A stretch of DNA of 64,000 nucleotides from Candidatus Pelagibacter sp. (GCA_045566995.1 JBJLDU010000009.1:50019-114018), one strand, 5' to 3'. Shown: positions 1 through 48,213, numbered from the stretch's first letter. Numbers and translations are program-made. The notes: a model not told the origin generated them from the sequence alone.

Positions 1-896
1 TAAATTCCTTTTTGTAGATATAGTCTTGAACCAGCAATACAACTCTGTCCGCTAGCTCCAAATATTCCTGCAGTAATTCCATTAATAGCATTTTCTTGAT
101 GAGCATCATCAAATACTGCAACAGGACTTTTTCCTCCAAGCTCTAAGCTTACTTCTGATAAATTTTCTGCAGAATTTCTAATAATATGTCTTGCAGTTTC
201 GGGTCCTCCTGTAAAAGCAACTTTTTCAACTAAATTATGTGTAGTTAAAGCTTTTCCACATGGGTCTCCAAAACCAGTAATAACATTTACTACTCCTTTA
301 GGAATACCTGTTTCCTCTATCAATTTTGCAAATTCAAACATTACTGCTGGGGCAAGTTCAGATGACTTAATTACCACAGTGTTTCCCATTGCTAAAGCAG
401 GTGCAAGTTTTGTTGCTGTTAAAAACATTTGGGAATTCCAAGGTACTATTGCAGCAATAACACCAATAGGTATTCTTGAAGTTATAGCTTGAATATTTGG
501 TTTATCTATTGGTAGAACTGTGCCTTCAACCTTGTCTGCCATACCAGCATAATAATCATAGTACTCAGCAATATAATTTGCCTGTTTATTTGTTTCTCTA
601 TAAAGTTTTCCAGTATCTATAGTTTCAATTTTTCCAAGTAATTCTGCGTTATCTCTGAGCTTATTTCCAATAGCTCTTAGAAACTTTGCTCTTTCTCGAG
701 GTAAAATTTTAGGCCAATCTGCTTCAAAGGCTTTTTGAGCTGCTTTAACTGCTTTATCTACATCAGAAGCACTTGCCTCAGGAACAATTGCCCATGGTTT
801 ATTATCCTCCGGATTTAAAGTTTCAAAAGTTTTCTTAGTATCAGAGTCAACCCATTCTCCTCCTATGAACATTTTATATTTTTTTAATTCAGGCAT
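1..896 (-). CDS. Aldehyde dehydrogenase, TgnC-like (3' end runs off window start)
   Basis: Not in the ORF track; translated by hand from ATG at 896 (ATGCCTGA overlaps the upstream stop): MPELKKYKMFIGGEWVD...IVPWNSQMFL...AFTGGPETARHIIRNSAENLSEVSLELGGKSP...GQSCIAGSRL. ALDH catalytic Glu/Cys motifs are present and the sequence strongly resembles trigonelline-pathway TgnC as I recall it. Confidence 0.9.
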   Translation of the reverse strand, partial: MPELKKYKMFIGGEWVDSDTKKTFETLNPEDNKPWAIVPEASASDVDKAVKAAQKAFEADWPKILPRERAKFLRAIGNKLRDNAELLGKIETIDTGKLYRETNKQANYIAEYYDYYAGMADKVEGTVLPIDKPNIQAITSRIPIGVIAAIVPWNSQMFLTATKLAPALAMGNTVVIKSSELAPAVMFEFAKLIEETGIPKGVVNVITGFGDPCGKALTTHNLVEKVAFTGGPETARHIIRNSAENLSEVSLELGGKSPVAVFDDAHQENAINGITAGIFGASGQSCIAGSRLYLQKGI

Positions 897-1662
897 TCTG
901 TATATGATCTTTAATTGCTTTATTTACATCATATGGGCATTCAATACTACATAGATGTTTGCCTACAGGTATTATTTTTACTTCAGAGTTTTTAATTTTT
1001 TTACTCAGATTATCAGACATTTCTGGAGTTGAGCCGATATCACCTTCTCCAGTCATCACAAGTGTTTTAATATTAATATTTTCAAATTTTTCGTTATCTT
1101 TGTGATTTACAAACAACGAGTAAACTTTAATAAAGTTATCCATATTATTATTTTCAAGAATTTTCATAATTTTATCTGAAATTAGAGGATTTTTTTCAAT
1201 AAAATCCTTATTAAACCATCTTTTAAGTGCGTCTTTCGTCAATTTTTTATCTTTTTTTGTCTGTTCAAACCTTTCATTTACTATCTTCTGTTCGTTATCA
1301 GATCTATTAAATATTGAGCACAACAATGTTAGGGATTTCAATCTATCACTAAATCTCGTTGCAAAGTTTCTTGCAATCAAAGAGCCTATTGAAAATCCAA
1401 CAAGGTGAATTTTACTAAATTTTAATTCATCAATTAGATAAATAATTTGATCTGAAAAATCATCAAAACTTATTTTTTCTTTATTTAAATTAGTTTTGCC
1501 GTGTCCAAGGATATCATAAATTAAAACTGTATTATCAAATTCATTAATTTGTGGATCCCATATATTATGATCAAGACCCACACCATGAATAAATACTATT
1601 GGAATTCCTTCTTTTTGGTTTAGTTTATAGAATGTACCTTTAGAGTCTGTTGCATTGATCAT
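889..1662 (-). CDS. Alpha/beta hydrolase (enol-lactonase/TgnD-like)
   Basis: HGVG oxyanion motif, GFSIG nucleophile elbow, C-terminal His (GKHLC); lies between DUF1185 and ALDH genes. Confidence 0.85.
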   Translation of the reverse strand: MINATDSKGTFYKLNQKEGIPIVFIHGVGLDHNIWDPQINEFDNTVLIYDILGHGKTNLNKEKISFDDFSDQIIYLIDELKFSKIHLVGFSIGSLIARNFATRFSDRLKSLTLLCSIFNRSDNEQKIVNERFEQTKKDKKLTKDALKRWFNKDFIEKNPLISDKIMKILENNNMDNFIKVYSLFVNHKDNEKFENINIKTLVMTGEGDIGSTPEMSDNLSKKIKNSEVKIIPVGKHLCSIECPYDVNKAIKDHIQNA

Positions 1663-1664
1663 TA

Positions 1665-2252
1665 TTATTTTGGTTCAATGCCCATCTCCTTCATATCTTG
1701 GTACCTATCACCTGTTCTTGCATGAGCTCTACCTGTCGAAGCACCACCAATTGCAATAACAATTTCATCATCAAATGGAGCGTCGTGAATTGTAAACTCA
1801 TGTGTAAGATAATATGGTCTTAAACCAGAGTCGGTTTTGTGCATCATTGGAATAGATATTTTTGATCCAGCCGGACCTCTTGTATTCGTAAAACTTAAAT
1901 AAGAAGTTCCTCCAACAGCATCTCTGAACTTATTACCAAATCTTAATGTATGAATAAATGCTGATGCATGTTCTATTTCTCCATTCAGTCCAACCACACC
2001 TGCTTTCCCGTAAGCTAATATTTTATCAGGATAGCCTATTTCTTTTATAAGTTCAGGAACCAATAAATCTCCGAGTTTAGGAGCTAGATCTAAAATAATG
2101 GGTTTTAAGTCTTCCACAAAACCTTTTCCATCCCAAGGATTTTTAAAAACTGCAGCAACAGAAACCATCAAAACTGGCTCTTTAGCTTCTTTTCCACCTT
2201 CAATAAAAGTCTTATCTACAAATTTAGTAAACTTACGTAATTCTAATTTCAT
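1665..2252 (-). CDS. DUF1185 / 'amino acid synthesis' family protein (TgnF-like)
   Basis: AAVFKNPW, AYGKAGVVGLNGEIEHASA, IPMMHK, DAPFDDEIV and GRAHAR motifs typical of the AA_synth/DUF1185 family. Confidence 0.85.
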   Translation of the reverse strand: MKLELRKFTKFVDKTFIEGGKEAKEPVLMVSVAAVFKNPWDGKGFVEDLKPIILDLAPKLGDLLVPELIKEIGYPDKILAYGKAGVVGLNGEIEHASAFIHTLRFGNKFRDAVGGTSYLSFTNTRGPAGSKISIPMMHKTDSGLRPYYLTHEFTIHDAPFDDEIVIAIGGASTGRAHARTGDRYQDMKEMGIEPK

Positions 2253-3949
2253 TTTTTAACTCTATGTGTAAAGCTATCTCTCCTAAAACTGTATAACGCT
2301 TTTGGATCTACATCAACATCTATAACAACTGGTTTATTTACTTTTAATGCACTTTTTACTGCCTCATTAACTTCTGATAATTTTTTAACTTTAATTCCTT
2401 TAGCACCGTATAGTTTCGCAACTTCATCAAAAGGAGGACTTTGAATATCAGCTCCTAAATATCTTTCACCATAAAAATCTTTTTGATAAGCTTTTTCTGC
2501 TCCCCAACTCTTATTATTCATTACAATTGTAATTGTGTTTATGCCATGCTCTACCGCTGTACTTAATTCAGAAATAGTCATTCCAAATCCACCATCACCC
2601 ATTAAACTAACAACTGTTTTATTAGGTTTTGCAACCTTTATTCCCAAACCACATGCAAATGAGAAGCCTACTAAACCAAAATCAAGGGGTGTGAAAAGGG
2701 AAGGAGGATTGTAATATTCTAAAGCATCTGTTGCTTGAAGACAAAGTGTTCCAGCATCAAGTGTTATCGCAGTATTTTTCGGAAGTACTTTTCTTAATTC
2801 TCTGAATAGACCATTCGGTTGGATTGGAAAATTTTTTGACTTAATATTATCTCTATCTTTAAGAAATTTTGATCTCTCTAATAAAAAGCTATTTGTCCAT
2901 TCTTTGTAATTGAAAATTTTCTTTTGTTTTCTTAATTCAGCTAAAATTTGATCTGTCACAAGTGCAGCATCACCATGAATACCTACATTAATTGGAAAGT
3001 ATCTTCCTATCATTGTTTTTTCTAACTCAATTTGTACAATTTTTGCGTTTTTATTTATATTGTCATACGAATAGAAAGTGGAATTGAAACCAAGTCTTGT
3101 GCCAATTGCAATAATTAGCTCTGCCTCTTTGACTAATCTTGATGCAACAATATTTCCTCTAGGTCCCATTTGTCCAGCATTTAACTTATGACTAAAGGGA
3201 ATTGCATCTCCATGTCCCGCTGCAGTTACAATTGGAATATTTAAAAATTCAGCAAGCTTTGTTACAGACTTAAATTTCGAATTATATTTTATTCCTCCTC
3301 CAGCAACAATTACTGTTTTTTTTGAGTTGAGAATAAGTTTTATAGTTCTATCAATTGAATTCTTTTTACTTTTTAAGTCACTTTCAGCTTTATAGGATTT
3401 TTTATTTTCATTAATCTTAAACTTTGAAGTATCAGAAAGAACATTTCTTGGAAGGTTTATACAAACTGGTCCTCTGCGTGGTGACATTGCAAGGTTAAAA
3501 GCATCTCTAAAGGCCGTTGGTATATGACTTGCCTTTTTTACTGTCCATGTTTTTTTTGTTATAGGATCAAAAAGTGATTGTTGATCAAGTCCTTGAAAGG
3601 CATCCTCCATCTTATCTTTAGTAGAATATAAACCTGCAATAGATACTACAGGAGAAAATGCTGCTTTTGCTTGAGCAATACCTGTAACTAAATTAGTTGC
3701 TCCTGGACCGTTTTGTCCAGCAATTATTACACCTGGTTGATTAGAGGCTCTTGCATATCCATCTGCCATATGCGTTCCAGTTCTTTCGTCTCTTACACCT
3801 ATAAACTTGATTTTCTTTTCATGATATAATGCATCAAACATCTCCATTGTAGCTGAACCAATTAAGCCAAAGACATGTTTAACTTTTTCTTTTTTTAAGG
3901 ATTTCACTGCCGCTTGACCACCGGTCAAGGTATTCTTGGTCTTGATCAC
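2249..3949 (-). CDS. ThDP-dependent enzyme, sulfoacetaldehyde acetyltransferase (Xsc)-like
   Basis: GDGGFG...NN ThDP motif; Xsc-type signatures GSA, HMADGYAR, GQNGPG, WGAEK..Q.DFY and C-terminal FRRD. The GTG start overlaps the upstream TGA. Confidence 0.8.
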   Translation of the reverse strand: MIKTKNTLTGGQAAVKSLKKEKVKHVFGLIGSATMEMFDALYHEKKIKFIGVRDERTGTHMADGYARASNQPGVIIAGQNGPGATNLVTGIAQAKAAFSPVVSIAGLYSTKDKMEDAFQGLDQQSLFDPITKKTWTVKKASHIPTAFRDAFNLAMSPRRGPVCINLPRNVLSDTSKFKINENKKSYKAESDLKSKKNSIDRTIKLILNSKKTVIVAGGGIKYNSKFKSVTKLAEFLNIPIVTAAGHGDAIPFSHKLNAGQMGPRGNIVASRLVKEAELIIAIGTRLGFNSTFYSYDNINKNAKIVQIELEKTMIGRYFPINVGIHGDAALVTDQILAELRKQKKIFNYKEWTNSFLLERSKFLKDRDNIKSKNFPIQPNGLFRELRKVLPKNTAITLDAGTLCLQATDALEYYNPPSLFTPLDFGLVGFSFACGLGIKVAKPNKTVVSLMGDGGFGMTISELSTAVEHGINTITIVMNNKSWGAEKAYQKDFYGERYLGADIQSPPFDEVAKLYGAKGIKVKKLSEVNEAVKSALKVNKPVVIDVDVDPKALYSFRRDSFTHRVKK

Positions 3950-5115
3950 GATACTTTTTTAACTTCAGTATCTAGATCATCTTTAAAGTTAGGCATTACT
4001 TTTTCAGTGAATAGCTTAATACTTTTCATACAATCTTCATGTTTAACACCAGGAAAGTTAGACCAAACTTGAAGATTTTGAAGATTAAGCTCTGATTGAA
4101 GTTCTTTAATTTTATCTGTTACATATTCAGGAGTACCAAATAACATATTTCGCTTATGTAAAAACTCGTAATTAAGAAGATCCAATTTACCTTTTGTTTC
4201 AGGAAGCTCTTCGCCAGGATCCATGTGATTACCAAGACCTCTCCAATGACAAACCCATTTCATATAATTTACCATATGTTGGCCAGCTTTTTCTTTGGCC
4301 TCTTCCATGGTGTCAGCGACAAACATATCTCTAACGAGAGTAACGCCTTCACCTAAAGGAACATTTTTTTTAGTAACTTCAGATCTTTTATTTTTATAAG
4401 CTTCAAATCTTATTTTCAATGCTTTGACTGTAGGTATCCACATAATTACATTTATATTATTTTCCGCAGCCCACTCAATAGATCTTATACCATCAACAAC
4501 TTGATGTATTGGAGGGTGTGGATTCTGATAAGGCTTTGGAAGAACACTAATTTTTTTCATAGTGCTATCACTCATATTCATAAATTCTTCACTTGGCGGG
4601 CTCATGTCATGCTGCCAAACATAATTTGGTGATGGATAAGTATAAAATTCTCCGTCATGATTAAAAAATTTCTCTGACCATGCTTTTTTTAAAATTTCTA
4701 ATGTTTCAGCAAATAATCTAAAATTTTTTGCCTGATCTTTTAAATCTGCTTCTTTGTTTAAATTAATTGCTTCTCTCCCATAAACACCTCTTGCAACACC
4801 AACTTCTACTCTTCCTTTTGAAAGTTGATCAAGTGTAGCTATATCTTCTGCTAATCTTATTGGGTTATGAAAAGTTATTACGTTTGCTGCTTGTCCTATT
4901 CTTATATTTTTTGTTCTTGCTGCAGCATCTGCTCCTAGCATTAAGGGATTAGTACATGACTCCATTCCCTCATGGTTAAAATGATGTTCAGTAAACCAAA
5001 TTGAATTCCAATTGTTTTGATCACAATATTCTGTGATCTGTTTAGTTTCATCTAATAATTTGTGATATGGTTTGTGTGTCCAATTTGTAGTATTACAAAA
5101 ATAACCAAACTTCAT
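3946..5115 (-). CDS. Luciferase-like (LLM class) flavin-dependent monooxygenase
   Basis: WFTEHHF, PIRLAEDIATLDQLSKGRVEVGVARG and PKPYQNPHPPI motifs; strong RBS AAAGGAGG upstream. Confidence 0.9.
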   Translation of the reverse strand: MKFGYFCNTTNWTHKPYHKLLDETKQITEYCDQNNWNSIWFTEHHFNHEGMESCTNPLMLGADAAARTKNIRIGQAANVITFHNPIRLAEDIATLDQLSKGRVEVGVARGVYGREAINLNKEADLKDQAKNFRLFAETLEILKKAWSEKFFNHDGEFYTYPSPNYVWQHDMSPPSEEFMNMSDSTMKKISVLPKPYQNPHPPIHQVVDGIRSIEWAAENNINVIMWIPTVKALKIRFEAYKNKRSEVTKKNVPLGEGVTLVRDMFVADTMEEAKEKAGQHMVNYMKWVCHWRGLGNHMDPGEELPETKGKLDLLNYEFLHKRNMLFGTPEYVTDKIKELQSELNLQNLQVWSNFPGVKHEDCMKSIKLFTEKVMPNFKDDLDTEVKKVS

Positions 5116-5138
5116 TAAAGCCTCCTTTAAAAATTAAT

Positions 5139-5198
5139 TTAAAGACGACCGATCCCACTTTCGTATATGAAATTACGACGAGTTATGTATCGCTTTAT
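5139..5198 (-). promoter_or_regulatory. Candidate structured cis-regulatory RNA upstream of the LLM operon
   Basis: GC-enriched island (22 of 56 nt G+C over 5141-5196) in an otherwise A/T spacer. Nested stems: TCGTA/TACGA (5161-5165/5174-5178), CGAT/ATCG, and TAAAG-CGA/TCG-CTTTA. It ends about 14 nt before the RBS. Confidence 0.45.
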
Positions 5199-5216
5199 AA
5201 AATAATATTATTATTC

Positions 5217-6188
5217 TTACCTTTGATATTCAATGAATTTTTTAAGGGATTTATTAAGAAATTTATCGTATCTAATGCCGCTATTAGTAAGTTTTTTCTT
5301 ATTTAAAAATGAAAGATTCATTTTAAAGTCATATGAGGGTTCAAAAAAGAAAGGAACTGAAAGCCTTTTTTGCTTGTTCCATAATACCCTATGATTAGTT
5401 GCTTTGAACCTTCCCTTACTTAAATATTCAAGCGCTCTTCCAGTATTTACAACTAAAGCATTTTTATCAAAGGGAACATCATGCCATTTTTTTGTTTTAC
5501 GGTTTTGTACTTGTAAACCGCCTTTTTTGTTTTGGTAAAGTACTGTAAAAATACCACTATCTACATGTGTTTCACATCCAAGAGCAACCCCATCTTGTTT
5601 AGAAATTTCAACAGGCTTTGATTGATTTGGATAATAATTAAAACGTAATGTGCTAAGAGTTTTTAATCTTGAAAATACTTTTTTTGATATATCGGTATCC
5701 TTATTGTAAATTTTAATAATACTTTTAAAAAGAGTATCACTTAAGTTAAATATGTCATCATAATAGTCAGATAATTTAGAAATTGAATTTGTGGTAAATG
5801 ATTTTTTTATATTTATAAATTCGATGTACTCATTTTTTACTTTTATTGAATATTTTTTTGTTACTCTTAAATCACCTAAATCTAATCCTTCTTTGCCATT
5901 TACATCATCTGGAAAATACCCTCTATAAATATTTTTATTTTTTTTATTCCATTTTTTTGGAGCTAATTTAAGTTTATTTTTTTTATCAGATTTAAAAAAA
6001 TTTTCTCCAACTGTGCAAATTTTATTTATATTTTTTAATTTAATCCCATGTCCTATTATTTGAAAAAAACCAACGTCTAAACAAGCTTTCTCAATTTCTT
6101 TAACTATTTTAAGGCTAGTTTTTGAATTAAAATTTTTTCTAAGTATAGAAGAAATATTTATTGTTGGAATGTAATTTTTTTTTATCAT
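5217..6188 (-). CDS. Isopenicillin N synthase-family Fe(II)/2-oxoglutarate oxygenase
   Basis: N-terminal IPTINIS...ACLDVGFFQIIGHGI; HxD (HVD), distal His (ATNHRV) and RxS (RLS) motifs. Confidence 0.85.
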   Translation of the reverse strand: MIKKNYIPTINISSILRKNFNSKTSLKIVKEIEKACLDVGFFQIIGHGIKLKNINKICTVGENFFKSDKKNKLKLAPKKWNKKNKNIYRGYFPDDVNGKEGLDLGDLRVTKKYSIKVKNEYIEFINIKKSFTTNSISKLSDYYDDIFNLSDTLFKSIIKIYNKDTDISKKVFSRLKTLSTLRFNYYPNQSKPVEISKQDGVALGCETHVDSGIFTVLYQNKKGGLQVQNRKTKKWHDVPFDKNALVVNTGRALEYLSKGRFKATNHRVLWNKQKRLSVPFFFEPSYDFKMNLSFLNKKKLTNSGIRYDKFLNKSLKKFIEYQR

Positions 6189-7132
6189 CTATTAGGTGTA
6201 TCTGACGCAATCATTTGACCTCGAACTTTTTCTCTAAAGTAAATATACACACCTGCTCCAATAATTATTGATGCGCCAAGAAAAGTTCTAGGCACTGGTA
6301 TAGTTTCAAACAATATGTAACCAGCTATCATTGCAAAAACTATATACGAATATTCAAATAGAGATACTACCGAAGGGGAAGCAATACTATATGCGGTAAA
6401 TACACAAAAAAATGATATTGATGCAACAATACCCATTACAAAAACATATGGCCAAGAAACAGCTGGGTTTACAAACCATTCTCTAAAAATGAACTGCATT
6501 GTAGGGTCAGAAAAACTATTAAACTTTCCATCCCCACTTATTAAAAATATTATAACACTCGCAATTACTGCAAAAATATAAAGTAAAGTTAACTGAGTAT
6601 AAATATTATCTTTTTCAGATGTATATTTTGTAATTGTCATAGAGCATGCATAACAAAGTGAACATGCAACTGGTGCCAATTTAAAATAATTAAAGTCTTC
6701 TAAAGTTGGATTAAGTACAACTAAAACACCAATAAAACCTACGGTTATTGCACTCCATCTCCTAATACCAATTTGTTCTTTTAAAAATATCTTAGCAAAT
6801 ATTGACATAAAAAAAGGACACGAAAAGAATAATGCACTAACCATTGCTAAAGACATAAATGTCAATGAAATGTAAAAGAAACTAAATCCAAAGAAAAAGC
6901 AGATTACTCTTAATAAAGTCAATAAAGGATAATGAGTTTTTAAAGTAAATTTTTTTTTTGTTATTAAGAAAATAGAAATGAGAACTGTAGCTTGTACAAT
7001 AGTTCTACCAAGATATAGCTCAAATAAAGCAATCTCTTCAAATATATATTTTATAAGTGAGTCTTGGATTGAAAAAAAAGCCATCCCAATCATAATGAAA
7101 AGGATGCCTTTAGTATTATTATTTGCTTCCAT
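6185..7132 (-). CDS. DMT/EamA family transporter
   Basis: About 10 hydrophobic helices; FLKEQIGIRRW and SLFEYSYIVFA motifs. Confidence 0.85.
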   Translation of the reverse strand: MEANNNTKGILFIMIGMAFFSIQDSLIKYIFEEIALFELYLGRTIVQATVLISIFLITKKKFTLKTHYPLLTLLRVICFFFGFSFFYISLTFMSLAMVSALFFSCPFFMSIFAKIFLKEQIGIRRWSAITVGFIGVLVVLNPTLEDFNYFKLAPVACSLCYACSMTITKYTSEKDNIYTQLTLLYIFAVIASVIIFLISGDGKFNSFSDPTMQFIFREWFVNPAVSWPYVFVMGIVASISFFCVFTAYSIASPSVVSLFEYSYIVFAMIAGYILFETIPVPRTFLGASIIIGAGVYIYFREKVRGQMIASDTPNR

Positions 7133-13524: not shown

Positions 13525-14559
13525 ATGGATTTTAATCATTTTTTAACAAGTTACATGCCAGACACAAGCATGGGTTCAAGGCAGCATTTTAAAAATATGC
13601 TTGAAGAATGTGTAACTGCTGAAAAAATTGGTTATGCAACTGTATCAATACCAGAGCATCATTTAATAAATTTACTGATGATGCCATCACCATTACAGAT
13701 GGCTGTAAAAATTGCATCAGTTACAAAAAATATTAAAATAACAACAGGTATTGTTGTTTTACCTCTACACGACATGAGAACATATGCTGGTGAAGTAGCT
13801 ACTGCTGATATTTTAACTGATGGAAGATTAATCTTAGGTGTAGGAAGAGGAGCATTTCCATGGGAAATGAAAAGACTAGGTACCCCAATAGAACAATCAA
13901 AAGAAAAATTTGTAGAATCTTTAGAGGTTCTACAATTGTTATTAAAAAATAAAGAAGTTTCGTATAAAGGCAAATACTATGACTTCGAGCCATTAACTAT
14001 AATGCCTCGACCCATAAGCAATCCAATACCAATGATGGTTGCCGCAATGAATTTAGAAAGTATAAAAGATGCAGCTTCAAGAGGATTTCACGTTCAATCA
14101 ACAGTATTATCAGGAACAAAAGATCTTTTATTAAGTAGAGTTAATGCATTTAAAGAAGGTTGCGCTCAGTTAGGTGAAAATGGCAAGTTACTCAAACTTT
14201 CAATGCAAAGAATGGCTTATCTAGCAAAAGATGAAAATGAAGCTAAAGAAAAAACAAAACTTGCTTACGAATATTATAAAAGATTTGATAATATGTTTAC
14301 AGGACCAGGAAAAGTAAAAGAGGGAAATATTGAAGCTTTGCCAAGAAAACAAACTTTAGAAGAATTAAAAGAAAATCTTTTAATTTGTCCTTTAAATGAA
14401 ATGATCGATAAACTTAGCGTTTATGCTGAAGCAGGAGTTGATGAGGTAATTCTTAGTTCAAGTTTTGGACAATCACAAGAAGACCTAATAGAGTCAATGT
14501 ATAGAATTGGTGAAAACGTAATCCCATATTTCAAAAAATCTAATATACAAGTAGCTTAA
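13525..14559 (+). CDS. LLM class flavin-dependent monooxygenase, TgnB-related
   Basis: PEHH, AGEVATADILTDGRLILGVGRGAF and GFHVQST motifs resemble trigonelline monooxygenase TgnB as recalled. Confidence 0.85.
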   Translation: MDFNHFLTSYMPDTSMGSRQHFKNMLEECVTAEKIGYATVSIPEHHLINLLMMPSPLQMAVKIASVTKNIKITTGIVVLPLHDMRTYAGEVATADILTDGRLILGVGRGAFPWEMKRLGTPIEQSKEKFVESLEVLQLLLKNKEVSYKGKYYDFEPLTIMPRPISNPIPMMVAAMNLESIKDAASRGFHVQSTVLSGTKDLLLSRVNAFKEGCAQLGENGKLLKLSMQRMAYLAKDENEAKEKTKLAYEYYKRFDNMFTGPGKVKEGNIEALPRKQTLEELKENLLICPLNEMIDKLSVYAEAGVDEVILSSSFGQSQEDLIESMYRIGENVIPYFKKSNIQVA

Positions 14560-14565
14560 ATATCT

Positions 14566-15336
14566 ATGAGTATCATAGATTGTAATTACTCAGTTACAGG
14601 ATCAGGACCTGCAATATTTTTAACTCATGGAGTTGGAGGTGCAGAAGATGCATGGAGATTTATTACTCCAAAACTTAAAAGCATGTTTACAGTTGTGACA
14701 TATGATTTAAGAGGTCACGGAAAATCACCTGTAGATAATAAAGATTTTAATTTAGATGATCTTGTATTAGATCTTGAAAGAGTAAGAGAAAAGACAAACA
14801 TCCAAAAAGCCCATTTTATGGGACATTCTTTAGGGGGCATGATTGCCCCTGCTTATGCTAAAAAGTTTCCTGAAAGAGTTTTGTCAGTAGGCCTATTATC
14901 AACAGTTGCAGGAAGATCTGATGAAGATAAACAAAAAGTATGGAATGTCATTTCAGATCTAAAAAATAGGGGCGTTGAACAAACATTAAAAAATCTTACT
15001 AGCAGATGGTTTACAGACGATTTTATTGAAAAAAATCCGGACCTAGTATCTAGACGATTAAAACAGGTAATAGATACTGATAAAGATGTGTTTATAAATG
15101 TTTTTAAAATTTATGCAGAAACTGAGATGATCTCATGGTTAAAAGATATAAATAAACCCTGTCTATTTATGACAGGAGAAAATGATGGTGGATGCACTCC
15201 TTTTCATAACAAAAAAATGTCAAATGAGATAAAAGATTCTAAATTAGTTATTATACCAGATGTTAAACACTCTTTTTTGATAGAGGCTCCTGAGCAAATT
15301 GCAAATAACTTAATAGAATTTATTGAAAATATTTAA
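14566..15336 (+). CDS. Alpha/beta hydrolase (TgnD/enol-lactonase-like)
   Basis: HGVGG, YDLRGHG, GHSLGG nucleophile elbow, GENDGGCTP, KHS. Confidence 0.85.
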   Translation: MSIIDCNYSVTGSGPAIFLTHGVGGAEDAWRFITPKLKSMFTVVTYDLRGHGKSPVDNKDFNLDDLVLDLERVREKTNIQKAHFMGHSLGGMIAPAYAKKFPERVLSVGLLSTVAGRSDEDKQKVWNVISDLKNRGVEQTLKNLTSRWFTDDFIEKNPDLVSRRLKQVIDTDKDVFINVFKIYAETEMISWLKDINKPCLFMTGENDGGCTPFHNKKMSNEIKDSKLVIIPDVKHSFLIEAPEQIANNLIEFIENI

Positions 15337-35520: not shown

Positions 35521-36261
35521 ATGAATTCAACAAAAATAGAACCTAAATACATAAGTAAATCAAATCCACGGGTCGGTCTTATTGCACTCGCAAGTGATTT
35601 TATGATTGAGAGAGATTTTATAAATGTAATTAAAGATCGTGATATAGATTTTTTTGTAAATAGAATTGAGTGTTATAATCCTTTAACTAAAGAAAATTTG
35701 ATCAAAATGTCTAATAAAGTAACCATTGTAACAAAAGATATTTTGCCTGATCAAGATATTGATTGTGTTGTCTACGGATGTACTTCTGGAACTATTGCTG
35801 CAGGCTATAACTCTATTGAGCAAAAGGTAAAAGCAGCAAAACCAATGGCTCAGGTTACAACACCAAGTACAGCCGCAATAAAAGCGTTAAAAAAGTTAAA
35901 TATTAAAAAGCTTTCACTATTTACCCCCTACAGCAAAAAACTTAATGATGAAGTTATGGGATATTTTAAGTCAGAGGGATTTGAGATAACATCCAATTCA
36001 TACTTTGATATAGAGGCAGATTACGACATTGGTAAAGTAGACCAAAATTATTTGTATGATGTCTTATCTAAAATAGATTTAAATGGAGCGGACGCATTAT
36101 TTGTATCTTGTACAGCTCTTCCTGTATTGCCAATAATTGATAAACTTGAAAAAAAACTCAACACGATTGTTTTATCAAGTAATCAGGCTTTAATTTGGGA
36201 TACTCTTGTCCAAATAAATAAAAATAACCTTGTAGAAGGTTTTGGTAAATTATTCAGATAG
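35521..36261 (+). CDS. Asp/Glu racemase-maleate isomerase family protein (EutA-like)
   Basis: Two catalytic Cys (YGCTSG, VSCTAL), TPY, SSNQA; immediately upstream of an ectoine hydrolase-like gene. Confidence 0.8.
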   Translation: MNSTKIEPKYISKSNPRVGLIALASDFMIERDFINVIKDRDIDFFVNRIECYNPLTKENLIKMSNKVTIVTKDILPDQDIDCVVYGCTSGTIAAGYNSIEQKVKAAKPMAQVTTPSTAAIKALKKLNIKKLSLFTPYSKKLNDEVMGYFKSEGFEITSNSYFDIEADYDIGKVDQNYLYDVLSKIDLNGADALFVSCTALPVLPIIDKLEKKLNTIVLSSNQALIWDTLVQINKNNLVEGFGKLFR

Positions 36262-36267
36262 AAATTT

Positions 36268-37437
36268 ATGTCATTTACTAAAGACGAATATAAACAAAGA
36301 TTAAAAAAAGTTCAGTCGATGATGCAGGATAAAGGTATCGAACTATTGATTTCTCACGATACTAATAACATGAATTATTTAACTGGTTATGACGCCTGGT
36401 CTTTTTATTATGCACAGTGTGCTATTGTTCATGTTAATGCTGATGAACCTTTATGTTTTGTAAGAGCTCAGGACTCAGGAGGTGCTTACATAAAAACGTA
36501 TCTCAAAGATGAAAATATAATTGTGTATGATGAAAATTATATTCATACATGGCCAAAACATCCTTACGATTATTTAGTACAGATTATTAAAGACAGAAAT
36601 TGGGATAAGCTTTCAATTGGAGTTGAGATGGACGCTCATTATTTCACTGCTTTTTGTTATGAAAAGATAAAACAAGGTTTACCAAATGCAAAAATAAAAG
36701 ATTCAGAAAGATTAGTAAATTGGGCAAGATTTGCAAAATCTGATGCAGAAATTAATTACATGAAAACTGCTGCACTAATTTCAGAAAAAGGAATGAAGAC
36801 TGCAATGGAGGTAATAAAACCGGGTGTCAGACAATGCGATGCAGTAGGTGACATACAAAAAACTTTATTTTACGGGACACCTGAGTTTGGAGGAGAGTAT
36901 TCTAGTATCGCAACACTCTTACCAACTGGAAAAGGAACATCTGCATCTCATTTAACAGCAACCCAAGATAAGTTTGTTGAAGGCGAAGCGACAATCGTTG
37001 AGTTATCTGGAGTTTATAAAAGATATCATGCGCCAATGGCAAGAACAGTCTTACTTGGAAAACCTGATCAATTAAAAATAGACACGATGAACAAAACTAT
37101 CGAAGCTCTTCAAGCTGGAATTGATGCTACAAAACCTGGGAATACAGCAAATGATGTAGCGCAAGCTTTTTGGGGTATTTTAGATAAATATGGAATAGAA
37201 AAAAAATCAAGAACTGGTTATTCAATTGGAATAGGTTACCCGCCAGATTGGGGAGAGCATACTCTTAATATATATAAAGGAGAAATGACTGAACTAGTAC
37301 CTAATTCGTGTTTTCATATGATAGCTGTAATGCAATTTGGTGATTGGGGAGTTGAAGCATCGGAGGCTATAAGAGTTACTGACAAAGGATGTGAATTATT
37401 CTGCAATTTTCCAAAAGAGTTACACATTAAGAGTTAA
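36268..37437 (+). CDS. doeA: Ectoine hydrolase-like M24 family protein (DoeA/EutD)
   Basis: NMNYLTGYDAWSFY, RYHAPMART, SRTGYSIGIGYPPDWGEHT are DoeA/EutD signatures. Confidence 0.8.
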   Translation: MSFTKDEYKQRLKKVQSMMQDKGIELLISHDTNNMNYLTGYDAWSFYYAQCAIVHVNADEPLCFVRAQDSGGAYIKTYLKDENIIVYDENYIHTWPKHPYDYLVQIIKDRNWDKLSIGVEMDAHYFTAFCYEKIKQGLPNAKIKDSERLVNWARFAKSDAEINYMKTAALISEKGMKTAMEVIKPGVRQCDAVGDIQKTLFYGTPEFGGEYSSIATLLPTGKGTSASHLTATQDKFVEGEATIVELSGVYKRYHAPMARTVLLGKPDQLKIDTMNKTIEALQAGIDATKPGNTANDVAQAFWGILDKYGIEKKSRTGYSIGIGYPPDWGEHTLNIYKGEMTELVPNSCFHMIAVMQFGDWGVEASEAIRVTDKGCELFCNFPKELHIKS

Positions 37438-37482
37438 TTAATTGTTGCAAACAACCTAACTAAATGTTTTAAAAACTAACCT

Positions 37483-38568
37483 ATGTCAAAAAAAGAAGAT
37501 TTCGTAAAATTTGATAAAGTCGACAAAAGTTACGATGGAAAAGTATTAGTAGTTAAAGATTTGAATTTAGACATCGAAGAAGGTGAATTCGTAACAATGC
37601 TTGGACCCTCTGGTTCTGGAAAAACCACATGCTTGATGATGCTTGCTGGTTTTGAAACCCCAACTAATGGAGAAATTTATTTAGATAAAAATCCAATTTC
37701 AAATATTCCTCCACACAAAAGAGGTATTGGAATGGTTTTTCAAAATTATGCTTTGTTTCCTCATATGACAGTTTTTGAAAATTTGGCTTTCCCTTTAAGA
37801 GTAAGAAAAATTTCAAAAGATGATATAGATAAAAAAGTTGAAAAGGCATTATCTATGGTTTCATTGTCAGGATTTGGAAACCGTATGCCAGGACAACTTT
37901 CAGGAGGTCAACAACAGAGAGTAGCCGTAGCAAGAGCATTGGTATTTGATCCATCAGTAGTTTTAATGGACGAACCTTTGGGTGCTTTAGATAAAAATTT
38001 AAGAGAAAGTATGCAGTACGAAATTAAACATATTCATGAAAGCATTGGTGTAACCGTTGTCTATGTTACACACGACCAAGGTGAAGCATTAACTATGTCA
38101 AACAGAATAGCAGTATTTAACGATGGTAAAGTTCAACAACTCTCGAGTCCAGATAAGTTATACGAAGAACCTGTAAATTCTTTCGTTGCAGAGTTTATTG
38201 GAGAGAATAATACTTTTGCTGGAGAAATTTCAGATATATCAAATGGATCCTGTAAAGTTAAACTAGATAAAGGTGAAATAATTGCAAATCCAATTTCAGT
38301 TAGATCTGTTGGAGAAAAAACTACAGTTTCAATTAGGCCTGAAAGAGCACTGATCAACCCTAAAGATAAAATGGATAACAATCAAAAAGGTATAATAGAA
38401 GAGGTTATATATCATGGTGACCACACAAGAGTAAGATTGAATTTACTTGGTAACTCTGAATTTATTTTAAAAGTTCCAAATAGTTCTCAAAATTTAGATA
38501 TTAAATTAGGTAACGAGATTAATATTGGCTGGAATAGTCATGATGCAAGAGCATTAGACCCAAAATAA
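37483..38568 (+). CDS. potA: PotA-type ABC ATP-binding protein
   Basis: GPSGSGKTT, MVFQNYALFPHMTV, LSGGQQQRVA, C-terminal TOBE domain. Confidence 0.9.
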   Translation: MSKKEDFVKFDKVDKSYDGKVLVVKDLNLDIEEGEFVTMLGPSGSGKTTCLMMLAGFETPTNGEIYLDKNPISNIPPHKRGIGMVFQNYALFPHMTVFENLAFPLRVRKISKDDIDKKVEKALSMVSLSGFGNRMPGQLSGGQQQRVAVARALVFDPSVVLMDEPLGALDKNLRESMQYEIKHIHESIGVTVVYVTHDQGEALTMSNRIAVFNDGKVQQLSSPDKLYEEPVNSFVAEFIGENNTFAGEISDISNGSCKVKLDKGEIIANPISVRSVGEKTTVSIRPERALINPKDKMDNNQKGIIEEVIYHGDHTRVRLNLLGNSEFILKVPNSSQNLDIKLGNEINIGWNSHDARALDPK

Positions 38569-41962: not shown

Positions 41963-43087
41963 TTAGTTAACAGACTCGATTACAGTAGCAATTCCCATTC
42001 CTAAACCAATACACTGAGTTGAAAGTGCATACTTTTTATTTTCTCTCTGAAGTAATTCAGCCGCTTTACCTGTAATTCTTGCACCTGTTGCTCCAAGAGG
42101 GTGACCAAGAGCAAGTGCTCCACCATCTAGATTAACTTTATCTTTGTCTATACCTAAATCTTTAATGCATGCTAAAGATTGTGAAGCGAAAGCCTCATTT
42201 AATTCAACAATATCAATTTTATCTGCTGACAAATTAGCTCTTTCTAAAGCTTTCCTTGATGCTCCAATTGGACCTAATCCCATATAGTCAGGGTCACAAC
42301 CTTGTACTGCCGTAGACACAATTCTTCCCAAGATATTTAAATTATTTTCCTTTGCATAACTTTCTTCACAAATTAATGTTGCAGCTGCACCATCGGTTAA
42401 AGGTGAAGAAGTTGCTGCTGTAACAGTGCCATTTTCATCAAATGCAAGTTTTAACCCATCTAATTTTTCCATTGTGCTACCAGGTCTAATATTTCCATCA
42501 GTATCACAATCTCCAATAGATACTATTTCATTTTTAAAATTTCCTTTTGTTTGAGCTTCATGCGCTTTTTGATGACTTGAGATTGCAAATTCCTGTTGTT
42601 CACTTCTTGAGATATTATATTTTTTAGCAACATTTTCAGCAGTAGTTCCCATTGAAAAGTATACATGAGGATTATCATTTTTATTTTCAGGATAAGGTAT
42701 TGGATCAAACCCTGTATTTACTCTGGTCATACTTTCAACACCTCCACAAATAAATACTTTTCCTGCACCTAATGAAATTTTACCTGCAGCTATATGAATA
42801 GCCTCCATTGAAGAACCGCACCATCTGTCAACTGTCATACCTGACGTTTTGACATCCATATTAGTTAAAAATGTTGTTAACTTTCCAATATTAAATGACT
42901 GCTCTCCAGTTTGGAATGCGCAACCTACAACAATATCCTCAATATCTTCTTTTTTTATATTAGATTTAGAGACTAAATTTTTAATTACTTCGGCCAATAG
43001 ATTTACTGGCTTTGTATCAATGAGTGCACCTTTTCTTGCCATCGTAAAAGGTGATCTTGAGAAGCCGGCAATAACAGGTTTAAACAT
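41963..43087 (-). CDS. Acetyl-CoA C-acyltransferase (thiolase)
   Basis: RWCGSS, NEAFASQ, GHPLGATG, CIGLGMG. Confidence 0.93.
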   Translation of the reverse strand: MFKPVIAGFSRSPFTMARKGALIDTKPVNLLAEVIKNLVSKSNIKKEDIEDIVVGCAFQTGEQSFNIGKLTTFLTNMDVKTSGMTVDRWCGSSMEAIHIAAGKISLGAGKVFICGGVESMTRVNTGFDPIPYPENKNDNPHVYFSMGTTAENVAKKYNISRSEQQEFAISSHQKAHEAQTKGNFKNEIVSIGDCDTDGNIRPGSTMEKLDGLKLAFDENGTVTAATSSPLTDGAAATLICEESYAKENNLNILGRIVSTAVQGCDPDYMGLGPIGASRKALERANLSADKIDIVELNEAFASQSLACIKDLGIDKDKVNLDGGALALGHPLGATGARITGKAAELLQRENKKYALSTQCIGLGMGIATVIESVN

Positions 43088-43103
43088 AATGATAAATATA
43101 AGG

Positions 43104-44270
43104 TTAATCTGGAAATGGTAAAGAAGTTATAATGCCTTTTCTGTTTTTTCCATTGAAAGTATTTACAAAAACTTCGTTTCCAATTTCCCAGTAATCTTTC
43201 AAAATCATAGAAAGACCTATATTCTTTTTAAATCTTGGAGAATAAATTCCAGAAGCAATTTGGCCAATTTTTGTATTATCTTTTGAATATACTGGAAGGG
43301 GCACCCCCGTTGGCTTACATGGGTCTCCATCAAACAATATTCCTCTCATTTTTTGAGCTATTCCATCAGATTGGATCTTTCTTAAAGCTTCTTTACCTAT
43401 AAAATCATGATCATCTTCCTGTTTGCAATATTTTTCAAGATTACACTCCAATGGATTATTTTCTCTTGTAAAATCATTTCCATAGGACATTAAACCAGCC
43501 TCAATTCTATCAATTAAATTTGGACATCCTGGAGAAATATTAAATTTTTGTCCATTCTCCCACACAGTATCCCAAAGTTTTTCTCCAAGCTCTATTTCAT
43601 TAAAGTGGGTTTCAAATCCTTTAAAATATATTTCAAAACCATCTTGTTTACTATATCCTGATCTAGCAATAATTTGTTTAGTTCCTAAAAAATCAAATAC
43701 TTTAAAATTAAAAAATTTTAACTTCTTTATATCTTCACCAAAAATTGAAATTAAAAGATCTTCAGATTTAGGACCTTGAATAGCTAGTGGATAAACATCT
43801 GGTTCAATAATTTCTACATTTAATTTTGATCCTAATGCAATACCTTTTGCCCAAAGCAAAATATCTGAGTCTGCAATCGAAATCCAAAACATATCATCAT
43901 CTAGCTTTAATAAAACTGGATCATTAATCATACCGGCTGTTTCATCAATTATTGGAATATAAAAACATTTACCGGTTTCCATTTTTTTTATGGATCGGGG
44001 TGTCATTTTTTGTACAAGTTTTTCAGCATCTGGACCTGTAATTTGTACTTGTCTTTGACAAGACACATCCCAAACTTGAACCTTTTCTCTTAAATGCCAG
44101 TAATCTTCTTCAACGGTATTTTTAAAACCTTTTGGCAGTAGCATATGATTAACTACAGTAAAATCTGACACACCACATTCCTCTACTTTATTTGTAAATG
44201 GAGTTCGTCTGATACGTCTAGACATATTTAATTTTATATTTTTTTGAGGAATTAAATTTTCTTTACTCAT
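43104..44270 (-). CDS. dmdA: Dimethylsulfoniopropionate demethylase DmdA (divergent clade)
   Basis: SRRIRRTP, NHMLLP, WDVS.QRQV, NDPV, WISIADSD, ARSGYSKQ.GFE, GCPNLIDRIE; matches DmdA motifs. Confidence 0.82.
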   Translation of the reverse strand: MSKENLIPQKNIKLNMSRRIRRTPFTNKVEECGVSDFTVVNHMLLPKGFKNTVEEDYWHLREKVQVWDVSCQRQVQITGPDAEKLVQKMTPRSIKKMETGKCFYIPIIDETAGMINDPVLLKLDDDMFWISIADSDILLWAKGIALGSKLNVEIIEPDVYPLAIQGPKSEDLLISIFGEDIKKLKFFNFKVFDFLGTKQIIARSGYSKQDGFEIYFKGFETHFNEIELGEKLWDTVWENGQKFNISPGCPNLIDRIEAGLMSYGNDFTRENNPLECNLEKYCKQEDDHDFIGKEALRKIQSDGIAQKMRGILFDGDPCKPTGVPLPVYSKDNTKIGQIASGIYSPRFKKNIGLSMILKDYWEIGNEVFVNTFNGKNRKGIITSLPFPD

Positions 44271-44271
44271 T

Positions 44272-44607
44272 TTATTTAGACCACCAAACTGTATAGCTAT
44301 TTTTAGAAATTATAATTGGGATATGATATTTTTTATTTTGATCTTCCATTTTAAATTTAATGTTAATTTCTGAAACTATTTTTTTTTCTGAAAAATAATT
44401 GCCAGTTTTACAAACCATTTCATAATCACACTTGCAGTCGTCTTTACTTAATTCAAATTCTTGAAGTATTCGACCACCTTCATCAGATTTAGTTTCAAAA
44501 AAAACTTTTTTTTCTCCACTTTCATAAACTTGATAAATAATTACATCAACATTTGCAGCGTGCGAGCCATTTGTTGCATCTAATAAATGAGAAGAGAAAG
44601 TTGCCAC
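44272..44607 (-). CDS. Transthyretin-like protein (HIU hydrolase family), atypical C-terminus
   Basis: SSHLLD, GGRI, YHIP; ends WWSK instead of the canonical YRGS. Confidence 0.78.
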   Translation of the reverse strand: MATFSSHLLDATNGSHAANVDVIIYQVYESGEKKVFFETKSDEGGRILQEFELSKDDCKCDYEMVCKTGNYFSEKKIVSEINIKFKMEDQNKKYHIPIIISKNSYTVWWSK

Positions 44608-44609
44608 AA

Positions 44610-46352
44610 TTATTCTATTGATGATTTCTCTCTTTTACTTGCAACTGCAGAGACTATTGGGCTTAATACAGGTTTTGCTTTAACATTTACGCATGCTGGT
44701 TTTCCACTTTCTAAAGCTCTTTTAAGTGCTGGGCCTAATTCTTCTCTTTTATTAACTAATTCTCCATGTCCTCCAAAACCCTCAAATATCTTATGAAATG
44801 GTATATCACGAAAATCAGTTCCTACACTTTTTCCACTTTTAAATAATCTTTCTTGTTGTTGGCCAATTGAAGCAAGACCCCCGTTATTATCAATTACAAC
44901 AGTAATAGGTTTTTTTTCGTAAAATACACTTTCAATAGACATACCTCCTGATAAAAACGCACCATCTCCACTAATCAGAACTACATTTGAGTCTGGACTG
45001 TGGTTTTTAGCAGATAAAGCGAATGAAACTCCAACACCTAACATGCTAAAAGTTCCAGGATGCAATATTCCTTTTAATTTTTTTCCTTTAGCACCCGCAA
45101 TGTTAATTGCAATCTCTGACCAAAAATGAGTGTTTCCTCCATCGATAACAAGCCAATCATTTTCACCCATTGCATCTTGAACATCCAATGAAAGTTGTAA
45201 AGGGTGAATTTTTCCTCCATTTTTTTTAGATGCCTCAGCTTCAATTTCTAAATCTTTTAATGATTTATCAACCCATTCTTTCTTCTTTTTTTTATTCTCT
45301 TCAAACCACTTTTTATCCAAAGACCATTTATTATTTTTTTTTAAGTTGGACAATGTATCTAAAAAAACACCAGGGTCACTTAGTAAACTAAAATCTGCAG
45401 CTCTATTAAGTTCTAATTCTTCATGTGAACCGTTCACACAAACTAATTTTGTTGTTTCTGGTATAAAAGGTGGATTTCCAAAATTCAATTGATTATCTAA
45501 TCGTGCTCCAACCACAAGAACTAGATCTGAATTATGTAATGCAAATTCTGAAGGAGGGTATTGATGTATATCAGCCAAACCCATATAAGCGTTAGCTTCT
45601 TCTCCTAATAATTTTTGATGATAAGGAACATTAAAAATTGGAATATTTAAATTATTACCAGCTGCCTCAAGATTTTTTTCTGAATGTGACCACCAAACAC
45701 CGTGTCCACCAATAATAAGTGGTTTTTTTGAATTACAAGCAAGCTCTAATATTTCCGAAAGTGAATTTGGATCTGGCCAAGCTTTGGCTAAAGGTTTTGC
45801 TTTTTGGGAATATGGTCTTTCTTCTAATCCAACTTCCTCAGCAAAAGATGAAAACATTATATCAACTGGAAGACTAAGATGTACGGCTCCAGGATACCCA
45901 TTAGTTGCAATATGATATGCTTTATCCACAAATTCTCTTATTCTAGTTCCATCAGTAATACTCGCGCTATATTTAGTTAAAGGGGCTGCAATTGAAACAT
46001 CATCAATTTCTTTAAAACCACCTGAGCCTTGCCTTTTAAGACTGCTAGATCCGGTAATATAAATAATTGGACTTCTCTCCCCCCAAGCCTCCATCATTGA
46101 AGGGACAGCATTTGTAAATCCTTCGGGTCCAACTAAACATACTGATGGTTTACGAGTAATTCTTGTATTACCATCCGCTAAGTGACCTGCAATTTGTTCA
46201 TGAGGAGTATTAATAACTTCAATTTGGCATTCAGCAAAACCTTCAATTGCTGGGTTACAAAAACCTCCTGAAAGCGTAAAAACTTTGCTAATTCCTTTAT
46301 CTTTTAGAGCTCTCGCAAGTACTGCTCCACCTCTAATTTTATTTTCACTCAT
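44610..46352 (-). CDS. ThDP-dependent lyase/decarboxylase (HACL/benzaldehyde-lyase/ALS-like superfamily)
   Basis: HEQ catalytic Glu, GFTNAV, GDGAF...DNN ThDP motif. Confidence 0.8.
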   Translation of the reverse strand: MSENKIRGGAVLARALKDKGISKVFTLSGGFCNPAIEGFAECQIEVINTPHEQIAGHLADGNTRITRKPSVCLVGPEGFTNAVPSMMEAWGERSPIIYITGSSSLKRQGSGGFKEIDDVSIAAPLTKYSASITDGTRIREFVDKAYHIATNGYPGAVHLSLPVDIMFSSFAEEVGLEERPYSQKAKPLAKAWPDPNSLSEILELACNSKKPLIIGGHGVWWSHSEKNLEAAGNNLNIPIFNVPYHQKLLGEEANAYMGLADIHQYPPSEFALHNSDLVLVVGARLDNQLNFGNPPFIPETTKLVCVNGSHEELELNRAADFSLLSDPGVFLDTLSNLKKNNKWSLDKKWFEENKKKKKEWVDKSLKDLEIEAEASKKNGGKIHPLQLSLDVQDAMGENDWLVIDGGNTHFWSEIAINIAGAKGKKLKGILHPGTFSMLGVGVSFALSAKNHSPDSNVVLISGDGAFLSGGMSIESVFYEKKPITVVIDNNGGLASIGQQQERLFKSGKSVGTDFRDIPFHKIFEGFGGHGELVNKREELGPALKRALESGKPACVNVKAKPVLSPIVSAVASKREKSSIE

Positions 46353-47516: not shown

Positions 47517-48201
47517 TATTAATTTTAATATATTCTTTTAAATTAAGTTGTTTATTTTGATCAACAAAATAAGCATTATGACTTTCTCTGGAAGAATAAA
47601 CCTCAGTTGGTTTTCCGTCAATAAAAAGTACTGCAACTCCATCATCTACAGCTACACCATTTGGTAAATTTTTATTTTTTATATTTTCTCTGTATTTATC
47701 CGCTCTTTTTGCATCTGAATAATGTGGGGTAAAACTTCCAGATATAAGCCCTATGCCACGTAATGGTTTGAAGCCAGGGCCATCTGAGTCTGTCAGAAAA
47801 TAATCAAACCAACATGCTGCACCAGCGCTAACACCAGATAGAATTATACCTGCATTATAAATTTCATTGAAAAGCTCAATCAAATTATTTTTTTTCCATA
47901 ATTCGAGCATGAATTTTGTATTTCCCCCACCAATATAAACAGCATCTAAGTTTGAAAGCCATCTTTCAAAACCCTTAATGCTAGATACAAGATCAAAATG
48001 GGAAACTTTTAGGCTAGTATTTTCAAATCTTTTATAAAATAGTTTAGTTTTTTTTGCGTCGTCATTACTAGCGGTTGGTAAAAATCCAATAGAGCAATTT
48101 TCTTTGCTCAATTTATCAACAAAAAATTGATCTAAGTCTCTATCTTCATTATGAGTAAAACCCCCACCTCCAACTGTTATTATTTGTTTTTTACCCTTCA
48201 C
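47509..48201 (-). CDS. Peptidase E (S51) / class I glutamine amidotransferase-like protein
   Basis: FLPTAS, IGGGNT, GVSAGA nucleophile, PHY. Confidence 0.85.
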   Translation of the reverse strand: MKGKKQIITVGGGGFTHNEDRDLDQFFVDKLSKENCSIGFLPTASNDDAKKTKLFYKRFENTSLKVSHFDLVSSIKGFERWLSNLDAVYIGGGNTKFMLELWKKNNLIELFNEIYNAGIILSGVSAGAACWFDYFLTDSDGPGFKPLRGIGLISGSFTPHYSDAKRADKYRENIKNKNLPNGVAVDDGVAVLFIDGKPTEVYSSRESHNAYFVDQNKQLNLKEYIKINNE

Positions 48202-48213
48202 TAACTCAAGTTT

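Follow-up and report, generated by a model that had tools for sequence, protein, structure and literature searches.

The LLM-ThDP gene run

Five genes follow one another on the minus strand at the start of a 64,000-nucleotide stretch of a Candidatus Pelagibacter sp. genome (GCA_045566995.1, JBJLDU010000009.1:50019-114018; G000:C9:50019-114018 in our numbering), the whole of which we call the window. The first gene (3946-5115) encodes a 389-aa luciferase-like (LLM-class) flavin-dependent monooxygenase (PF00296, 148.8 bits). It is followed by a gene with a GTG start for a 566-aa thiamine diphosphate (ThDP)-dependent enzyme (2249-3949; PF02776/PF00205/PF02775), and then by genes for a 195-aa DUF1185 (AA_synth) protein (1665-2252; PF06684, 216 bits), a 257-aa alpha/beta-fold hydrolase (889-1662; PF00561), and an aldehyde dehydrogenase (ALDH) that resembles TgnC of the trigonelline pathway (<1-896; PF00171, 534.6 bits for the whole protein). 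Of the 493 aa of this last product, the N-terminal 298 are encoded within the window, as its gene ends 586 nt past base 1 (L001:915-2396). As read from the sequence, a 4-nt overlap joins the LLM gene to the ThDP gene (GTGA) and another joins the ThDP gene to DUF1185 (ATGA), a 2-nt gap separates DUF1185 from the hydrolase, and the hydrolase and ALDH genes overlap by 8 nt. An initial annotation of the window had described this run of genes with overlapping or abutting ends, and open reading frames (ORFs), Pfam matches and junctions all agree with it. It had also suggested that a flavin reductase or pta might lie past base 1, but the genes found there, on the same strand, encode an exporter-type transporter of the EamA family and a Peripla_BP_6 binding protein, with a divergent Liv-type ATP-binding cassette (ABC) importer beyond them.

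The gene run is widely conserved. When one genome per species was scanned, 509 loci were found to encode a relative of the LLM, of which we inspected the best 80, all from Pelagibacteraceae; the closest are in Pelagibacteraceae single-cell genomes and in Candidatus Pelagibacter sp. HIMB1709. Across these 80 SAR11 loci the LLM is 93-99% identical, and the ThDP gene lies directly behind it in every one. DUF1185 is found in 77, the hydrolase in 75, and the ALDH in 72, each being present wherever the contig extends, so that within these limits the LLM-ThDP pair is always accompanied by tgnC/D/F-like genes, a point of gene neighborhood on which the initial annotation had hung its proposal. The binding protein is present in 68/80. 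The hydrolase is the fastest-evolving gene of the cassette, with 58-95% identity among the ThDP-bearing loci that we call type A below. Gene order is kept in another SAR11 family (G026, locus L011), with 49% identity for the ThDP enzyme and 55% for the LLM, and TARA contigs of 27% GC (L016) carry a shorter form, LLM-ThDP-hydrolase, without ALDH. The best 120 protein matches for the ThDP enzyme and the LLM are all SAR11-like, which shows abundance only. All of the genes, and the junctions between them, are spanned by contigs assembled from the RNA libraries of four independent seawater studies; such contigs may include DNA, and their cover is consistent with transcription of the operon in the sea. 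A search of the SAR11 literature found nothing relevant on an LLM-ThDP-DUF1185-hydrolase-ALDH operon.

The 101-nt spacer ahead of the LLM gene holds a riboswitch-like leader motif on the minus strand (5116-5216, core 5120-5202). It consists of the invariant core ACAUAACUC, a variable hairpin, and a second invariant core, GAAAGUGGGAU, and in a single-sequence fold (z-score -2.4) a helix 3' of GAAAGUGGGAU can sequester the Shine-Dalgarno sequence. The motif precedes all cassette forms, including type A, the ThDP-less type B described below, and the distant G026 and TARA forms, and its cores stay invariant even where identity between the LLMs is down to 55%. For the proposed pairs, 91.7% of cells pair, as compared with 32-49% when partners are slid, and compensatory changes occur at 5 pairs, as compared with 1.2 in shuffles. 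Each of five genomes has a single copy (5/5). Searching Rfam with the leader returned chance-level matches only and no family, and in a promoter and terminator scan of positions 1-6300 the sites were no more numerous than in shuffled sequence. We conclude that LLM-ThDP-DUF1185-hydrolase-ALDH is, by its junctions and conserved order, a conserved and translationally coupled operon behind a dedicated leader RNA motif. At one locus (L079:8396-8470), a second, partial leader copy sits beside an inserted minus-strand gene for a 356-aa product, between a 2-oxoglutarate (2OG) oxygenase gene and the LLM gene, and looks like a duplication made by the insertion.

The assembly comprises 0.94 Mb at a GC content of ~31%, with 70% completeness and 2.86% contamination. 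The first 16 kb of the window form an island of osmolyte and methylamine genes, which include a carnitine dehydrogenase/BKACE set, a GMC choline-dehydrogenase-like enzyme, a TauD-like enzyme, and a 2OG oxygenase; most type A loci have the GMC choline-dehydrogenase-like and TauD-like genes upstream, on the same strand. In some type A loci (L071:4234-5274, L091:12867-13907), the ThDP gene and DUF1185 are separated by an additional ORF of 346 aa, with no Pfam or NCBIfam match, and others have a 103-aa ORF (L080:12860-13171), with no Pfam match. Outside SAR11, a GC-rich alphaproteobacterium (L119, G342:C116:1-20000) has two LLM copies that are 43-45% identical to the cassette LLM, together with an ALDH (53%), a DUF1185 protein (59%), a hydrolase, TetR, an aldo-keto reductase, an isochorismatase-like protein, a cupin, an ABC importer, and a distant ThDP enzyme. 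This locus is a larger relative of the SAR11 cassette, in a lineage that is likely culturable.

Kinship of the ThDP enzyme with Xsc

The ThDP enzyme has three thiamine pyrophosphate domains, the catalytic Glu (Glu55), and a GDG-X25-NN motif at 451-479, and is predicted to be catalytically intact. Its best NCBIfam match is the subfamily model for sulfoacetaldehyde acetyltransferase (Xsc), NF005713, at 401.6 bits against a cut-off of 620; on the Xsc equivalog TIGR03457 it scores 387.8 bits against 676.4. These scores amount to 57-65% of the cut-offs, and the orthologues from G026 and from P0121 likewise fall under them. The acetolactate synthase (ALS) model TIGR00118 gives 396.5 bits, below its cut-off of 538. 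Identity is 27-35% to 14 Xsc sequences that pass the cut-offs and 27-29% to ALS, and no Xsc structure was among the solved-structure matches of the enzyme.

We then placed the enzyme in a maximum-likelihood tree with the 14 cut-off-passing Xsc sequences and ALS among its rows. The 14 true Xsc sequences form one clade (100/99), within a clade of 22 rows; the 12-row clade that contains the query is sister (100/98) to those 22 rows, and ALS forms a separate clade (100/100). Within the query's clade, five LLM-linked sequences group together (100/99). Of 86 Xsc-specific columns, with residues invariant in Xsc and lacking in ALS, the enzyme keeps 35, including the WGAEK and FRRD stretches, and has changed 51; 22 of the 35 are common to all five LLM-linked orthologues. 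By its placement, the enzyme belongs to an uncharacterised clade sister to the Xsc clade. The name "Xsc-like", which the enzyme had been given earlier, is fair for kinship, as it groups with the Xsc super-clade, but not for membership, as it lies below the Xsc cut-offs and outside the Xsc clade. Nor does it group with the acetolactate synthases, the placement that the initial annotation had singled out as a check. Neither in nor beside the operon, across the 80 loci, did we find tpa, tauABC or another taurine transporter, a sulfite exporter, or pta. No true Xsc was found in the window's genome, which is 70% complete. The genome does have two ALS large-subunit genes above the cut-off (G000:C9:13753-15444, 789 bits; G000:C5:4834-6525, 787 bits), which may be a true duplication or may come from a second strain mixed into the assembly, given its contamination of 2.86%.

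The nearest relative from a cultured organism is SPO_RS21380 of Ruegeria pomeroyi DSS-3, an uncharacterised protein of 40% identity that is encoded on the megaplasmid and is sister to the LLM-linked clade (97/88). Its gene is the last of an operon (L170, NC_006569.1, 339974-350270) in which LysR is followed by an MttB-family methyltransferase, a class III aminotransferase, and two dimethylglycine dehydrogenase (DMGDH)-like enzymes. Unlike the SAR11 cassette, this operon has no LLM, DUF1185, or hydrolase. From its gene content, it looks like a complete route by which a trimethylated amine would become an aldehyde or ketone. R. pomeroyi has a separate xsc, SPO3561, as PMC9870897 lists it, and this, together with the content of the SPO_RS21380 operon, suggests that the ThDP clade acts on amine-derived carbonyl compounds other than sulfoacetaldehyde. 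A literature search on the SPO_RS21380 locus found nothing relevant. Four other relatives of 40-43% identity (P0122, P0123, P0124, P0126) have no LLM nearby and gave no functional lead; their contexts are mixed, with PrpD plus TctABC, NMT1 binding proteins, LysR, and an ABC permease.

Type A and type B cassettes

Among 150 Pelagibacter species genomes we found the cassette, with or without its ThDP gene, in 68; of the 27 genomes of high quality, 15 have it. By gene, the LLM is present in 68 genomes and the ThDP gene in 34. The ThDP-bearing genomes make up type A, in which the LLM, where matched, is at least 83% identical to that of the window. Type B comprises 35 genomes with an LLM at 73-78% identity, all without the ThDP gene, and in no genome did we find more than one cassette. 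Type B loci read LLM-DUF1185-hydrolase-ALDH-EamA-SBP (substrate-binding protein). Relative to the window proteins, their identities are 87-95% for DUF1185, 74-91% for the ALDH, 78-90% for the binding protein, 74-78% for the LLM, and 45-58% for the hydrolase. The two types are alike in leader motif and genomic neighbors, whereas type B lacks the ThDP gene and has a divergent hydrolase.

An LLM tree rooted with TgnB gave the order (GC-rich alphaproteobacterium,(G026,(TARA form,(type B, type A)))), with types A and B each monophyletic (SH-aLRT 100 and 99). The ThDP tree is congruent with it, (G026,(P0121/L016,(type A))), which indicates that the ThDP enzyme has, as judged from these trees, co-diverged with the LLM. 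On the LLM tree, a single gain and a single loss, the latter in type B, are more parsimonious than three independent insertions. Because the two trees share a branching order, and by parsimony, we infer an old LLM-ThDP partnership that was lost in type B. The initial annotation had called the ThDP enzyme an insertion; on the LLM tree its gene looks instead to be ancestral and then lost. With the gene lost from roughly half of the cassettes in Pelagibacter, the ThDP step would be dispensable. Separately, the ThDP gene of one Pelagibacter genome (G548:C5:9505-11151) has an in-frame TAA; this copy may be in decay, which would fit dispensability.

Given their common leader element and binding protein, types A and B probably respond to and import one compound or close relatives. 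This weakens the earlier view of the ThDP gene as the sign of a different substrate, as type B, found in sister species, has the same leader and keeps closely similar binding and DUF1185 proteins. The sharing of these three elements with ThDP-less cassettes argues for a shared substrate class rather than for a sulfonate-specific route.

A candidate pathway, its rivals, and known systems

Much of the evidence on function comes from comparison with the trigonelline (tgn) cluster. Perchat and colleagues reportedly described this cluster, tgnR / tgnF-D-A-B-C-P-E, from Acinetobacter baylyi ADP1 (in PNAS, in 2018). As a reference we used the RefSeq-annotated tgnA/tgnB/tgnC copy on plasmid NZ_CP094644.1 of Acinetobacter sp. 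PK01, plus copies from Leisingera and Chimaeribacter. The order on the Acinetobacter plasmid is GntR, then DUF1185-hydrolase-tgnA-tgnB-tgnC-permease-...-SSADH (succinate-semialdehyde dehydrogenase), and the core order is alike on the Leisingera and Chimaeribacter plasmids. The SAR11 ALDH is 50% identical to annotated TgnC over 491 aa and 32% to the cluster's SSADH, and it reaches no NCBIfam equivalog cut-off. DUF1185 is 55% identical to the protein in the TgnF position in Acinetobacter and 57% to that in Leisingera. By these alignments, the ALDH is clearly orthologous to TgnC and DUF1185 to the protein in the TgnF position, which accounts for two of the four enzymes in common, and the tgn-like core proposed by the initial annotation holds up to that extent. 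The hydrolase has the fold of the TgnD-position proteins but is more distant, at 31% identity to that of Acinetobacter and 23-31% over the clusters compared; its best NCBIfam and PDB match is 3-oxoadipate enol-lactonase, below the NCBIfam cut-off. Role assignments for the tgn genes rest on RefSeq gene names, PMC7913881, PMC13236597, and PMC8269262. TgnF is a DUF1185 homologue that stimulates TgnE (PMC7913881).

The LLM itself shares 22% identity with annotated TgnB, which it exceeds in length by 44 aa, the TgnB type being ~345 aa. Its nearest solved structures are LuxA and 3,6-diketocamphane monooxygenase, and it reaches no NCBIfam family cut-off (NtaA/DmoA 39.8 bits, SsuD 30.6 bits). By sequence, it belongs to the luciferase / type II Baeyer-Villiger branch and is not a TgnB orthologue. 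A second LLM and hydrolase pair lies elsewhere in the window, after the carnitine genes (13525-15336, plus strand). That LLM is 26% identical to TgnB, so the cassette LLM is indeed the less TgnB-like, as had been claimed, with both far from TgnB; the LLM at 13525 is no TgnB orthologue either. A flavin reductase of PF01613 was found in 0/5 Pelagibacter genomes, two of them closed, and PF03358 FMN reductases are present in Pelagibacter genomes, unlinked to the operon.

The homarine operon had also been cited as having an LLM, DUF1185, and alpha/beta hydrolase core. The text of PMC13236597 describes no such core, listing HomA (FAD-binding, ~700 nt), HomB (~1,700 nt), HomC (a peptidase), and HomD (ALDH-like). 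We considered two other regions of the window (35521-38568 and 41963-49443) as a hom operon, and Pfam content gave no clear match. One gene run there (44610-49443, minus strand) encodes a HACL / oxalyl-CoA decarboxylase-like ThDP enzyme along with an FMN-dependent 2-hydroxy-acid dehydrogenase, an S51 peptidase, a transthyretin-like protein, and two GcvT-like proteins.

Taken together, we propose with moderate confidence that the type A cassette is a tgn-type SAR11 catabolic operon for a small nitrogen compound, with a dispensable ThDP enzyme that acts on a carbonyl intermediate. The substrate is probably a small zwitterion, N-heterocyclic or N-methylated. The LLM would use FMNH2 from an unlinked reductase to oxygenate or open this substrate, giving an aldehyde or lactol that the TgnC-like ALDH would oxidise, and the hydrolase, assisted by DUF1185, would free small N- and C1-fragments. 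A carbonyl intermediate, either an aldehyde or a 2-oxo acid, would pass through a ThDP-bound acyl or "active aldehyde" step, for which an Xsc/phosphoketolase-like elimination or a decarboxylation would fit. This step would be helpful without being essential, and the enzyme would be no sulfoacetaldehyde acetyltransferase proper.

Several points weigh against this proposal. Ring opening is suggested by analogy, as the LLM is not orthologous to TgnB and the hydrolase is far from TgnD. The SPO_RS21380 operon is of a demethylation-transamination kind rather than a ring-cleavage kind, and fits an N-dealkylation route at least as well. The shared leader could sense a common downstream metabolite and not necessarily the substrate. 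Finally, RNA libraries can contain DNA, and the cover of the operon by their contigs is no proof of transcription.

The N-dealkylation route is the serious rival, although we think it unlikely overall. Here, an NtaA/SsuD-style LLM would hydroxylate the carbon beside nitrogen, yielding an alpha-substituted acetaldehyde (betaine aldehyde, (methyl)aminoacetaldehyde, or glycolaldehyde), from which the ThDP enzyme would eliminate the leaving group to form acetyl-ThDP and then acetyl phosphate or acetate, with the ALDH as an alternative aldehyde sink. The chemistry of the sister Xsc clade is exactly such an elimination, and the R. pomeroyi relative ends an MttB/aminotransferase/DMGDH-like operon. 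The LLM-ThDP-hydrolase unit without ALDH (L016) and the type B ALDH without ThDP enzyme are consistent with two alternative aldehyde sinks, and choline-dehydrogenase-like GMC and TauD-like enzymes lie upstream in most type A loci. However, the ALDH and DUF1185 are 50-55% identical to proteins of the trigonelline pathway, which handle a ring-opened lactol, and the LLM scores on NtaA/DmoA and SsuD are very low. Moreover, acetate kinase was not found, and the sole small Pta-like (PTA_PTB) gene is an unlinked core gene in types A and B alike; we had considered this gene as a marker of the ThDP-bearing type and rejected it, as ThDP-less genomes carry it too.

The route first suggested for this locus begins with a sulfonated N-alkyl or heterocyclic betaine, from which the LLM would free sulfoacetaldehyde for the ThDP enzyme to convert, as Xsc, to acetyl phosphate and sulfite. 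We regard it as improbable. Xsc is the closest named family (402 bits) and its clade is the sister clade, the 35 kept Xsc-specific columns include WGAEK and FRRD, the incomplete genome has yielded no true Xsc, and a TauD-like gene lies upstream. Yet the enzyme falls far under the Xsc cut-offs and outside the Xsc clade, 51/86 invariant columns are changed, tpa, a taurine transporter, a sulfite exporter, and pta are unlinked in the 80 loci, and the host of the nearest relative has a true xsc of its own. The ThDP-less cassettes with the same leader, binding protein, and DUF1185 also count against it. Beyond the kinship of the ThDP enzyme with Xsc, a sulfonated substrate finds no positive support.

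In a further alternative, the ThDP enzyme would be a pyruvate-oxidase-like (ThDP + FAD) partner that reduces flavin for the LLM with a 2-oxo acid as reductant, replacing a TgnA-type reductase. Its gene adjoins the LLM gene as tgnA adjoins tgnB, with translational coupling and co-divergence, it is dispensable as reductase components often are, and no PF01613 reductase was found in the five genomes. But the enzyme groups with the Xsc clade and not with pyruvate oxidases, and the R. pomeroyi relative has no monooxygenase partner, which makes this idea very improbable. Least credible of all is that the ThDP gene is a passenger of unrelated function, such as a spare acetolactate synthase, as its absence from half of the cassettes and its 396 bits on the ALS model might suggest, because the genome has ALS genes of its own, the enzyme lies outside the ALS clade, no ALS small-subunit (ilvH/ilvN) gene adjoins it (its neighbors are the LLM and DUF1185), 4-nt overlaps flank it on both sides, and its tree is congruent with that of the LLM across SAR11 families.

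Going further than the tgn-type proposal, we raise more speculatively, and with more doubt than belief, the idea that the Xsc-sister clade carries out an undescribed ThDP-dependent elimination or internal redox reaction on a ring-opened or amine-derived aldehyde. The product would be an acyl phosphate or an acid, formed without NAD, in a riboswitch-controlled SAR11 pathway for an abundant marine osmolyte not yet linked to SAR11, and the R. pomeroyi operon would feed into this chemistry by a second route. SAR11 ranks among the ocean's most abundant bacterial groups. The ThDP enzyme defines an unstudied clade beside Xsc with a second member in the genetically tractable R. pomeroyi DSS-3. The cassette offers three experimental handles on its substrate: the dedicated leader RNA, whose ligand may be the substrate or an intermediate, the dedicated binding protein, and a cultured carrier, Candidatus Pelagibacter sp. 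HIMB1709. Our analysis contributes the ThDP phylogeny, the R. pomeroyi relative, the tally of two cassette types with its loss scenario, and the RNA-library cover.

Compared with known systems, the ThDP enzyme resembles Xsc in its three-domain ThDP fold, catalytic Glu, GDG...NN motif, and position in a sister clade, but lies outside the Xsc clade and lacks the pta, tpa, and sulfite-export context. The operon as a whole has in common with the tgn cluster an LLM oxygenase, an alpha/beta hydrolase, an ALDH, and a DUF1185 protein, at the level of families. It differs in gene order and in lacking the tgnA reductase, the second ALDH tgnE, the GntR regulator, and the cytosine-permease-type transporter. 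In place of these, the SAR11 operon has a leader RNA, an EamA transporter, and a Liv-type binding protein, and the ThDP enzyme is an extra component of the SAR11 operon.

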